Shown here in pieces: positions 46,801-55,800 of a stretch of 64,000 nucleotides of DNA. The position numbers were made by a program, and so were the translations under genes. The first letter of the stretch is position 1, and each line of letters starts with the position of its first letter. The stretch comes from Mobula hypostoma (taxonomy: Eukaryota), in assembly GCF_963921235.1 (NCBI RefSeq), contig NC_086108.1, forward strand, positions 12,710,001 to 12,774,000, in the 5' to 3' direction. The notes beneath the pieces were generated by a model, which was given only the letters and a program-made list of their open reading frames with translations, did not search any database and was not told where the DNA came from.

Positions 46801-49800
46801 TTCAGCGTTTATGAGAAGTTTTTGGATAGGTACCTGGACGGTATGTGTATGGAGGGTTATGGTATTAGTACAGGTTGATGGGTGTAGACAGTTTAAATGG
46901 TAACAGCATGGACTTGATGGGCTAAAGGACCTTTTTCTGTGCTGTACTTTTCTATGGCTCTAAGAGGCATTCTGCCGGCTGTCCCGAGGCCAATGTTTAT
47001 TCCTCAAACCTTTCTGAAATAGATTGGTCACAGTTTACTGTTGTGGGATCTTCTTGTGCACACATCATTTGCTTGTAATGCACCCGGGCATTTTGAAAGC
47101 TGAAGATCTGATGGTCTGCTGGTCTGCTGTAAAGCACTCAGGGACATTTCGAAAGGAATGTGGAAGGTGCTGTGGAAATCAATGTCTGTTGGTCTGCTGT
47201 AAAGCAATCCAAGGCATTTTGAAAGGTCTGTTAAAGGTGCTGAGGAAGTGAATGTCTGCTGGTCTGCAGTAAAGCAGTCGGGAGCACTTTGAAAGGAATG
47301 TTAAAGGAGTTGAGGAAGTGAACGTCTGCTGGTCTGCTGTAAAGCAGTCGGAGGCACTTTGAAAGGAATGTGGAAGGTGCTGAGGAAGTGAATGTCTGCT
47401 GGTCTGTTCTGTTAGAGTGCTATCGCATTCACCAGCATACACTGCCAACTATTTCGGTTGTTCTGCCTTGTGATCCAGTGAAGTCCATTCTGCCAGACCT
47501 CCTCTCTGACGTTCCCATCTGGTTATTTGCTAAGTAAATCCAGTGTCCAGCGTACTCACCTGCCGACCTCTTATAACCTAGAACAAATTTCCCTTATCTG
47601 AAAAGGTTAACAGCATTTGCCCTTCACAACCTGAACTTGTGTCCTCTTATCTGGCTATCTTCGTACGATAGAAAATACGTGTGATAAAAGTTCAAAGTAA
47701 ATTTTATTTTCAAAGTACATATACGTTACCATATGCAACCCTGAGATTCATTTTCTTGTGGGCATACTCAACAAATATGTAGAATAATAACCATAACAGA
47801 ATCAATGAAAGACCACTCAACTTGAGTGTTCAGTCAGAGTGGAGAGGACAACAAACTGTACAACGAGAAACAACAATATAAATAAATAAGCAATAAATAT
47901 TGAGAACATGAGATGAAGAGCTCTTGAAAGTGAGTCCATTGGCTGTGGGAACATTTCAATGAAGTTGAGTATAGTTATTCCCTTTTGATCAAAAGCCTTA
48001 TGTTGGAGGGGTGGTAACTGTTCCGGAATCTGGTGGTGTGAATCCTGAAGCTCTCGTACCTTCTTCCGGATGGCAGCATTGAGAAGAGCTCCTAGCCTGG
48101 CTGAAGGGGGTCTGTGATAATGACACTGTTTTCCTGCAACAAGGCTTTGTGTGTATGTGCTCAATGGTGCGGAGGGTTTTAGCCATTACTTTGTGTAGGA
48201 TTTTCCATGGAAGGACATTGTTGTTTCCGTACCAGGCTGTGGTGCAGCCAGTCAATGAACTCTCCAACACACATCTATAGAAGTTTTTCAAAATTTAGAT
48301 GTCTAGCCGAACCTCTGCAAGTTGCGCATCATGATAAATAGACTAGCTCTGGCCTCCAGACTCCTTCTCTGTTTGTTCAGTGTGTGCTCTCCCTCCCAGT
48401 GTAAAGATCTCTGAGCGTTTCTTTGTGTTACTTTTCCAGATTGTAGGTCGAGGCAATGATCAGGTGACAATAAGCTCAAAATTTGAAACCAGGGAAGAGA
48501 TTGGTGAGTAGTTCTTTATCTGTCAGTCAAAAAGTATAGCGTTATTGTTAGTGTTTACATCTGTGAAACTACTGCCTGAAGAATTAGTGACTGCCATTGT
48601 GTTTGTTTGTGCATACATCTGTGAGTAGTTGTCCACACCATTCCCGCGGAACAGCTGGACAGAGAATAACCTGTCCCAAGAGAGGCTCATTCTTTGCATA
48701 CTTCTTCCCGTCTTCAGCCTTGGTCAATTTCAGGACCGTTAAACTGTGTTGGAAGACAAAACGATGGATTGTTTGATTTGTATTGGAAACAACATACACA
48801 AAATGGTGAGGAGGAACTCAGCAGGTCATGCAACATCAATGGAAATGAGTCCATAGCCAACGTTTCAGGCCAAGACCCTTCTTCAGGACTGAGAAGGAAG
48901 GGAGGAAGATGCCAGAATGAAAAATTGGGGGGAGGGAAAGAAGGAGGGGGCCCAGGGACAAATAATAGTCAGGTGACAAGAGGTGAAAAGGGCAGAGTGT
49001 GAAATAGAGGAAGTGGGGAGGGGTGGGATTTGTTTGCTAGAAGGAGAAATTGATATTCATGCCATCAGGTTGGAGGCTACCCAGACGGAATAAAAGGTGT
49101 GGGTGGCCTCATCTTGGCACAGGGGAGTCCATGGACCGACATGTTGGAATGAGCCTCCTTCTCCTCCCCCCCCCCCCCTTTTTATTCTAGCGTCTTCCCT
49201 GTTCTTTCTCATTCCTGAAGAAAGATCTCGGCCCAAAACATTTGACTGTCTATTCATTTCCATAGATGCTGCCTGACCTGCTGAGAAAAACCTGCAGCAC
49301 AATACAGGTTCTTCGGCCCACAATGCTATGCTAGAAATTACCTAGGCTTACCCATAGCCCTTGACTTTTCTATTTTGGAAACCCATATTGCTTCTGTTGT
49401 TTGGGGTCTGGACCTCTTATGCATACACTGCCAACCATCTTCTTGCAGTCATGCTTGTACCATGCAAATACCCCTGAGTTCTGTGCAATGATTTGCTGTA
49501 CTGTGTGATCATCGCTCATCTCCTCCAGTTTTATCCACACTTCACCCATTGTGCATATTCTATCCTGATATTCACCTACTGGAATCTGTCTATGGCATAT
49601 GTCATTCACACCAGTTGGCATTCGCCAAATCATACAGTTAACTTGGTCAAAACAAAGCCCCACTTTGGCCATGTAATCACTCCCCAGTATATGTTCCTGC
49701 TTCCAGGGTAATTCAACTTGCACTATAGAATGTTCTAATGCCATGTCTCCTATTCTAGCTTCCAAGGATGCACTCATGTGTCCCACTTGTGAATATCCTG

Positions 49801-52800: not shown

Positions 52801-55800
52801 TAACTGGGTTACCGCTGGCACCAACGATTCTTTAGCATTGTATGCGGGCAGAGGATCCTCAGGAAAAAGCGCTTTGTCATTATCACAACCATATCTAGTT
52901 GCATCATCTGCTAAATCGTTCCAATCTGTATCTGCATATTCACTCTCCTTCCCTCTTTCAGATCCAAAAGTACATATTATTCCTCTCTGTGCAGCAAGTT
53001 AGTCCTGCAGCTGTTGTATCTGCTTTAAACACTTTGTATGATCACTAGTATTACTTCTTTTTACAGAAACTGATTTCTGTATCACATTTATAGCTGTTTT
53101 TAAAGAAATTCTTTAATTCCTCTGCCTGGTTCTTGGCTAAATTAGCTGCTTCTTCCCATTTACTTTATTCTCTAACCAATTTCTCGCATTTCAGCTGAAA
53201 TTGATTCATATGCACCAAATCCATACTTCTTTGTCCCTGTAAATCTGTAACATTTCCCTTGAAGATTCCTAACTCCTTTTGGAGCATTCTGTTTCATCTT
53301 CTAACTCCTTTTGGACTCTTTTGTTTTCGTCTTCTAACTTAGCTCACTCGGCGTCAGCTTTTTGCCAATTTCCTATTAACTCCCCAATGAGGCAAGGGAT
53401 TGCTACTGGCTTCAGTAGCTGTTTAAATTCCTTCCTCCAGCATTTTGTGTGCGTTGCTCTGGATTTCCAGCATCCACAGACTTGCTTGTGTTTACAATTT
53501 GCTTTGCATTTAGCTGACTTTTTAATTCCATCGCCTTCTTGTTCTCTGACGTTACTGTTTGTTTGACCTTTCTCCTGTTGTGATTAGAATAGTGAAAAGC
53601 TATTTAACTTCTTTGAGCCACACTGCACACTTTCAGTATTGTAATCGAAACTCATTTCACAGTTTCACAAGGTTACAAAATGTTGGGAAATGTGCTTTGA
53701 CTGGATGCCACTGTGTTAAATGGGCTGAATGGTCCCCATTTCTGCCTTCTCTACTGCCCTCGCTGAGGTGTTGTAACATCAACTAGACAGTCAGCCAAAC
53801 TCCATTTAAAAAATGACGGGAGTCAGGGTGTAGCCTCTGAGCTCCTGGGGTTTATTGCAGACTCAGTGGCCTGACATAGTGAATAAGGAGAGAAACTGAA
53901 AAACAACAAATACAGAGCAATTACCATGTTGTTCCATTCACACAAGGAAATATACACAGGTAAGTAAGAACTTCATTAAGTTTCCTGCAGGGAAATATTA
54001 TAGTATTCTGACAAGTAAATACTATGTATAAACCATTAGCATTTAGGTTAATGCCTAATAAACTCAAAAATAACATTCTATTTCAACAAAATCTTGTTGA
54101 TACATTTAGACTAACTTCTAAATAATATGGCATCTACTTACAAGCAATGCTTCTGCTGGGAAGACAACAGGATGGCTTCAGAAAGTAATTTCTTTAGCTC
54201 CTAACATTAACTTCTGGCCTCCTGCCAGCCAATGTGCTTTCCTACTTTCTAATTCCTACCTGCACAGGAAGTGACCTAAACCAGGTCTGAAGCTACTCAT
54301 TAAAATAAAAGCTGAATGTGCATAATCGCAGAGAAAAGCATAACTGAATTGCCCAAAGGACAGAAGACCTTTAACTTCTAAACTTCTATTATTTTATGAC
54401 ACTTCCATGTAAAGCTATTCAACTTCTAGACTTTATTTTGGCCCAGAGCTAGTTAACCAGTTGCTGCACCATGCTGTTCAGTGTACCCTCAGTCTAGCTG
54501 TTTAAAGCTGTCATTGTTTTTCTTTCCTGACTCTAGCTGTGATCCGTAACTATGGTAACCTCCTGCTGGAGATGTCAGCTATTGTCCCAGATGGAATTGT
54601 GGCATTCTTCACCAGTTATCATTACATGGAGAACATTGTGGCTTCCTGGTATGAGCAGGTAAAGGGTTGCTCTTTCACCTCGGTCTCACTCAACTTGCAA
54701 GACAGTTGGATGTTGGGCTGGGAAGGCAGGCCACATCATAGAATAAGGAACTGTACAACACCACATAAGCCTTTCGGACCACAGTGTTGTGCCGACCTTT
54801 TAAGATACTCTTCAGATCATTCTAACCCCTCCCTCCTACTTAGCCCTCCACTTTTCTTTCATCCATCTAAAATCACTGATGAGGAAGACATTAATACCGC
54901 TTTAGAGTGCTGTGTTTGTTCAGGCAAATATCTATCATATTCCCTGAATTAGCTGAATTTACTCAACTGGTCGATGGAGTCATGAAGTCAGAGAAAAGTA
55001 CAGCACAGAAACAGGCCCTTCAGCCCATCTAGTCCATGCCAAACCATTTAAACTACCTACTCCCATCGACCTGCACCGGGATCAAAGCCCTCCGTACCAC
55101 TACCATCCATGTACCTATCCAAACCTCTCTTAAACATTGAAATCGAGATCGCAAGCACCACTTGTGTTGGCAGCTCATTCCACACTTTCACCACCCTCTG
55201 AGTGAAGACGTTTCCCCTCATGTTCCCGTTAACTTTTCACCTTTCACCCTTAACCCATGACCTCTGGTTGTAGTCCCACCCAACCTCAGTGGAAAAAGCC
55301 TGCTTGCATTTACCCTGTCTATACCCCTCATAATTTTGTATACTGCTCAATCTACATTCCAAGGGATAAAGTCCTAATCTATTCAATCTTCTCTTTTTCT
55401 TTTCCTTTCTCCTTAGAGTAAAAAATAAAATTTTCCCTTCCTTTCCCCACTTTTTTTATTCTCCACTCTGGCCTCTTACACTTCTCAGCTGTCTATCACC
55501 TTGCCATGGGTCCCCTCCTCCTTCCCTTTCTCCTATCAGGCTCCTTCCTCTCCAGCCCTTTACCTCTCCCTGCACTTGGTTTCACCTTCTAGCTATCCTC
55601 CTTCCCTATTCCACCTTTTTGTTCTGGTGTCTCCTCCCTTCCTTCTCAGTCCTGAAGAAGGGTCAGGACCTGAAATGTTGATTGTTTATTCATTTCCATA
55701 GATGCCGCCTGACCCACCGAGTTCCTCTAGTATTTGTGTGTGTTGCATTGCAATGATGAGCTTTGTTTAGGAGCACAAGAGAGTTAGAGTGCATGCTCCT

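Follow-up and report, generated by a model that had tools for sequence, protein, structure and literature searches.

Copies of endogenous retrovirus (ERV) RNA made by long interspersed nuclear elements (LINEs) have already been published, and so have LINE chimeras. For HERV-W, 135 processed pseudogenes made by L1 have been described, with R-U5/U3-R ends, poly(A), a TT/AAAA motif and target-site duplications (TSDs) of 5-15 bp (PMC5016936). Doucet et al. (2015, PMC4476161) reported U6-L2, U6-Mon1 and U6-RTE chimeras together with one U6-CR1 candidate, and human mRNA/LINE-1 5' chimeras are known from 17 cases with TSDs, long L1 parts and often splice sites at the joint (10.1101/2025.02.02.635956). 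In sharks and rays, tails are shared between short interspersed nuclear elements (SINEs) and LINEs, as in HE1/HER1, in amplified families with tRNA heads (PMC3747384). In this work, we analyzed a 64,000-nt stretch of the Mobula hypostoma genome (NC_086108.1, positions 12,710,001 to 12,774,000 of the forward strand; hereafter the window), in which an ERV fragment lacking long terminal repeats (LTRs) carries the 3' tail of the LINE CR1 and splits an older repeat. CR1 and ERV form an unusual pairing.

Like the HERV-W copies, the locus would be LINE-copied ERV RNA that entered without integrase, and it has no full LTRs; unlike those colinear viral mRNAs (PMC5016936), it is an internal fragment on the LINE's own tail, without poly(A) or TSD, present once and joined to CR1. 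In the U6 chimeras, as here, foreign sequence lies 5' of the 5'-truncated tail of a stringent-type LINE in the same orientation, an arrangement ascribed to template switching, although their cargo is a small nuclear RNA (PMC4476161) and that of the window is 2.2 kb of retroviral sequence, entered internally. The mRNA/LINE-1 chimeras, for which splicing, ligation and template switch are the proposed routes, also place a longer cargo 5' of the LINE in one insertion, but here the joint lacks a splice donor and the LINE part is just 87 nt long (10.1101/2025.02.02.635956); the term ERV is absent from the main text of that report. As in HE1/HER1, a CR1-type 3' tail stands on non-LINE sequence, but the window holds a single copy without promoter (PMC3747384). 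In the literature searched, which covered few subscription papers and excluded supplements, we found no CR1-tailed retroviral fragment, and the available text of PMC6500023 and PMC4494074 holds no CR1-ERV case.

A CR1-tailed retroviral fragment inside an older repeat

A preliminary description of the window had placed an exact split of a repeat tail at 49285/53432, and this was borne out, with 0 bases lost and 0 duplicated. The repeat, which we take to be of Penelope type, has in its left part an inverted arm (~48790-48947) and a direct arm (~49154-49285), and the direct arm breaks off at the insertion. The split run is unbroken at ~12141-12185, as had been noted, and also in the element's own inverted left arm. 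In public-run contigs of many paralogous Penelope copies, 49285 is joined straight to 53432. We also applied a split-flank test to the window and to a control sample of 62 ten-kb stretches, some of which adjoin or duplicate one another and three of which lack ERV, and found the window's outer flanks adjacent at no fewer than 8 other loci. The sole other positive, L052, is an ERV piece bounded on either side by the natural end of a whole Penelope and illustrates, for contrast, what two whole elements look like. The outer flanks of the window's Penelope agree at 11 of 13 bases, a possible decayed TSD of that element; the flank limits were set by eye, and 15/3000 and 6/3000 random pieces of the window attain this level. 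Because of this match, both halves probably belong to one Penelope insertion; two independent Penelopes beside the fragment are ruled out by the internal break, the exact register and the possible TSD common to the outer flanks.

Read on the minus strand, the insert runs from an ERV leader and gag region through a younger CR1 and a piece with protease and the start of reverse transcriptase (RT) to the CR1 3' tail (Table 1), and the fragment and its tail together make a 2.3-kb dead piece. The preliminary description had named the same parts, a 5'-truncated gag, a younger CR1, protease plus RT start and about 85 bp of CR1 3' end in the same orientation, and our matches refined their limits. Its protease label stands through the paralogs, which carry it, since searches of Pfam, PDB and homologues returned no relevant match for the window's piece itself. 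The D-T-G motif of the paralogs, presumably the retropepsin motif, lies just upstream, inside the segment absent here. The 5' end of the insert lies ~300 nt downstream of the LTR end in 4/4 paralogs measured, and ~97 nt of ERV is lost between gag and protease, where the younger CR1 sits.

Neither edge of the insert shows an LTR, primer-binding site (PBS) or TSD, again as first described. The TG..CA LTRs and 4-6 bp target-site duplication of an integrase-made provirus are thus absent, and so are the U3-R 3' end, the poly(A) and the TSD of a HERV-W-type copy, a CR1 tail standing at the RT start instead. The cargo and the LINE 3' end share one orientation, with the cargo on the 5' side, as in a LINE template-switch chimera. 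Both outer junctions carry 2-nt microhomology, AA at the 5' end and CT at the 3' end.

Table 1 Features of the locus, with window coordinates; class names are those adopted in the text.
Feature	Position	Strand	Evidence
Penelope-type repeat, left part	48790..49285	.	arms compared, 104/130 identical
CR1 3' tail, 87 nt	49286..49372	-	abundant CR1 family
ERV protease C-terminal part and RT start	49373..49866	-	other copies 80-89% identical
Younger CR1, 5'-truncated, ORF2 with RT	49882..51823	-	RVT_1 E 8e-29
ERV leader/gag region, many stops	51824..53431	-	zf-CCHC E 1e-8 in paralog gag
Penelope-type repeat, right part	53432..53495	.	remainder of split arm in exact register
Host-gene exon, helicase C-terminal domain	54540..54658	+	Pfam Helicase_C_2 E 1.8e-4, under curated cut-off

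The ages of the parts were compared by identity. The Penelope arms match each other at 81% (126/155), and in a comparison of the arm with 12 other copies identity does not exceed 79%. Against 16 paralogs, the ERV piece reaches a mean of 88.5% (best 90.7%), as other copies do, and has no close sister. An unselected block of the CR1 tail is 85% identical to its family, compared with 89% within the family, and the younger CR1 is 95% identical to 5/6 relatives tested. These values (81%, 88.5%, 85% and 95%) are compatible and fit an order in which the Penelope came first, the ERV and tail arrived together and the younger CR1 came last. In a relative, organism B, whose flanks are ~98-99% identical, a 62-nt contig (depth 3.6) crosses the joint of Penelope and tail with 1 difference, its short side of 26 letters falling below the 31-letter rule, and a 93-nt ERV piece matches with 2 differences; the insert therefore probably predates the split from this organism. 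Contigs of organism E (~92% identical in the flanks) enter the Penelope from both sides, to 48837 and from 53453, while among its matches listed, which are swamped by repeats, no piece bridges any insert junction, which is uninformative in either direction. From organism C came short pieces only.

Parent retrovirus, CR1 family and their junction

Searching with the 583-nt protease/RT-start piece returned 1296 candidates, 40 of which were scored (identities in Table 1), and 151-nt gag and pol probes returned 100-170 candidates. The paralogs have TG..CA LTR ends, PBS, polypurine tract (PPT), zf-CCHC, RNase H and integrase, in the layout LTR-PBS-gag-pro-pol-env-PPT-LTR, with env represented by an env-like open reading frame (ORF) only. 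Their LTR pairs are still similar (274/307 identical in L038 and 334/353 in L041). The paralog RT matches Pfam RVT_1, and its nearest solved structures are gammaretroviral (E 1e-41, against 3e-30 for foamy virus and 8e-27 for Ty3), a placement by structure-database match; together with the env-like ORF this rules out a Gypsy element in place of a retrovirus. At the position of the RT start, a CR1 tail is seen at 0/29 other loci, most of which extend into RT.

One such env-like ORF, in L031 at 8311-8955 (+), has an RKKR site, a hydrophobic stretch and a coiled-coil-like region and is reminiscent of F-like Env, but Pfam and PDB gave it no support. In lokiretroviruses, Env is described as similar to paramyxovirus F (PF00523) (PMC7947760). 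A 214-aa env stretch of one paralog had no PF00523 or F match, and for this paralog a likeness to lokiretroviruses was not confirmed.

The tail belongs to an abundant CR1 family, of which it is the 3' end and whose longer copies carry ORF2 upstream (as in L058). Relative to this family, ~16 nt are missing inside it, a loss with just one similar case elsewhere, at a locus that has no ERV beside it. The tail terminates at the first unit of the CR1 3' microsatellite, with the CT microhomology to the target. Its predicted fold (z about -1.9 to -2.0) has a hairpin unlike that of a family copy and was not used as support.

The ERV|CR1 junction is single-copy genome-wide, by both exact-with-2-mismatch and degenerate patterns, so no amplified chimeric family is present. 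The full junction is absent from the 39 other scored DNA matches (40/727 candidates scored), and one weak match to it (3-68) is L041, which runs on into RT. The preliminary description had suggested the junction and gag as probes for a parent provirus and other chimeras, and three junction searches found the junction once and no donor or sibling. Two candidate second chimeras, L089 and L202, were rejected because the ERV resumes past the CR1 (L226, L214); L046 and L063 are two further candidates. Splicing at the joint is ruled out, as the ERV side has no splice donor. An assembly artefact is likewise rejected, since a contig from the possible source sample bridges the joint with 0 differences and 40/38 letters on each side, although this contig is not independent of the assembly.

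We then compared the locus with CR1 insertions in the ERV family across the control sample. Several apparent ERV truncations were nested insertions, with the ERV resuming further on. Of the 12 CR1s that have a visible 3' end and are preceded 5' by ERV, 11 show ERV again after the tail, and the sole tail followed by non-ERV sequence is that of the window. The target change was estimated for 10 CR1 insertions from BLAST edges, which are imprecise, giving 6 short overlaps, 1 roughly blunt case and 3 losses (32, 97 and ~1,440 nt). Because six overlap shortly and one is about blunt, the window, lacking a TSD, falls within this range. In L055 (oriented 4725-5517), a CR1 insertion coincides with a ~1.4 kb loss of pol.

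Routes of insertion

A single integrase-free insertion ending at the CR1 3' tail is well supported, because the split is exact, no LTR remnant exists despite an LTR-bearing parent, the ages are compatible and the tail has the same orientation. CR1 priming is the simplest explanation, since this single insertion ends within ~10 nt of the natural CR1 end. We infer target-primed reverse transcription of an RNA template; one CR1-primed event, by either of two RNA routes, appears probable, and within it a template switch is our tentative choice. These likelihoods, like those below, are judgements and were not computed. The CR1 RT would have cut within the old Penelope repeat, copied ~100 nt of its own RNA tail and jumped at the RT start onto the RNA of a then-active endogenous retrovirus. 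About 2.2 kb may then have been copied toward the 5' end before an early stop, leaving an LTR-less viral fragment on a CR1 tail, whose 5' end would have been joined to the target through 2-nt microhomology with no net target change; the younger CR1 would have landed in the fragment later. In the stringent LINE ZfL2-2, microhomology is seen at ~80% of 3' junctions, and blunt joins are a known outcome as well (PMC2666801), both also described in PMC4245944, and same-orientation template-switch chimeras of stringent LINEs have been reported (PMC4476161; 10.1101/2025.02.02.635956). The preliminary description had proposed just such a switch of CR1 from its own tail to retroviral RNA; the integrase-free single insertion is well supported, while the switch is the most likely single route, inseparable by sequence from the two alternatives considered next.

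Several observations weigh against the template switch or lessen its support. All 26 other family tails examined (26/26) keep at least part of the second microsatellite unit, although later contraction of a unit could explain the short 3' end in the window. An intron, a poly(A) or an RNA end that would prove an RNA template is absent from the fragment, and no empty orthologous site was seen in the listed contigs of organisms B, C and E, among which neither of the two outcomes named in the preliminary description as refuting its reading appeared. By a binomial estimate, the 2-mismatch search detects an 11%-diverged donor only ~40% of the time, and the scoring of junction candidates stopped at the 40 of 727 already mentioned. 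Shared orientation is weak evidence, because CR1 3' ends touching ERV are sense in 17/21 cases, a count made with probes mostly from sense copies, and the excess possibly reflects a strand-biased target preference or the probes. Finally, short sense CR1 tails are common within ERV paralogs (66-250 nt; 85 nt in L046 and ~117 nt in L179), and they could therefore serve as donors for a read-through transcript.

Such read-through, from a provirus elsewhere with a short sense CR1 tail in pol, would have given an LTR-driven RNA that CR1 proteins copied in trans and truncated at the 5' end, the donor being lost or never fixed. It predicts the same anatomy as observed, and stringent LINEs do recognise the 3' tail and mobilise RNAs sharing it, such as SINEs (PMC3747384). 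However, no donor or sibling with the ERV|CR1 junction was found within the limited power of our searches, the 16-nt tail deletion recurs only at the ERV-free locus, and the insert has no close sister among the paralogs. We consider this route somewhat unlikely.

Unlikely in our judgement is capture at the DNA level, in which a break took up ERV DNA, from a genomic copy or unintegrated complementary DNA, by copying or ligation; the ERV DNA would have been added to the 5' end of an aborted CR1 insertion or would have come as a single segment already CR1-tailed. The microhomology at both outer junctions, the absence of a TSD and the 3' end shorter than in the other family tails are consistent with it, and extra nucleotides occur at the 5' end in ~40-50% of ZfL2-2 elements (PMC2666801, PMC4245944). 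However, those extra nucleotides amount to several bases in the cases described in PMC4245944, not kilobases, and a random break would rarely fall as near to the natural CR1 3' end as the segment's stop does (within ~10 nt). In addition, no close genomic template remains, and none of the 62 stretches holds another ERV piece that splits a repeat.

Decay in place, with a full provirus in the Penelope losing pol-env-3' LTR to a CR1 insertion and its 5' LTR to a second deletion, is highly improbable even though copies of this family are heavily rearranged and 3 of the 10 measured CR1 insertions show target loss, because it needs two deletions (~1 kb and ~6 kb), each ending at a proviral edge and both together erasing the integrase TSD to the base.

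If the locus is indeed a CR1-made copy, 2.2 kb of retroviral sequence entered the germ line without integrase, written by a LINE thought to copy mainly RNAs that carry its tail, and LINE-driven ERV retroposition extends beyond mammalian L1. Some LTR-less ERV fragments in non-mammals would then be retrocopies and not decayed proviruses, which affects integration counts and dating. It is quite unlikely, in our view, that CR1 repeatedly captures retroviral RNA in the cartilaginous-fish germ line, offering viral genes an integrase-free entry route, and that a class of such copies, first exemplified here, is annotated as decayed proviruses. The locus itself is one dead copy with no sign of function and little biological consequence.

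Host gene and further observations on the retroviral family

The insert likely lies in an intron, antisense to a helicase gene on the + strand, which we take to be ERCC2/XPD-like. The repeats of the region are in keeping with a ray-like cartilaginous fish. Within the Penelope arm, the motif at window positions 49210-49245 is one we presume to be like a hammerhead ribozyme core.

Several other copies of the ERV family are rearranged or duplicated. In L051 and L053, leader and gag are absent and the ends of the LTR and of gag meet at a common junction (oriented ~3500), where microhomology spans a few bases and a splice donor is lacking. L033 and L034 (G000:C40, 56.1 and 56.8 Mb) are LTR-less, carry the same CR1-fragment|gag 5' junction with gag 92.7% identical, and probably represent a segmental duplication. 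Three identical-scoring ERV matches at G000:C9:200384824-200432914 are spaced ~23.8 kb apart and are likely a tandem array. On G000:C99, L215 and L097 have gag sequences 99.8% identical in opposite orientation, 2.7 Mb apart.

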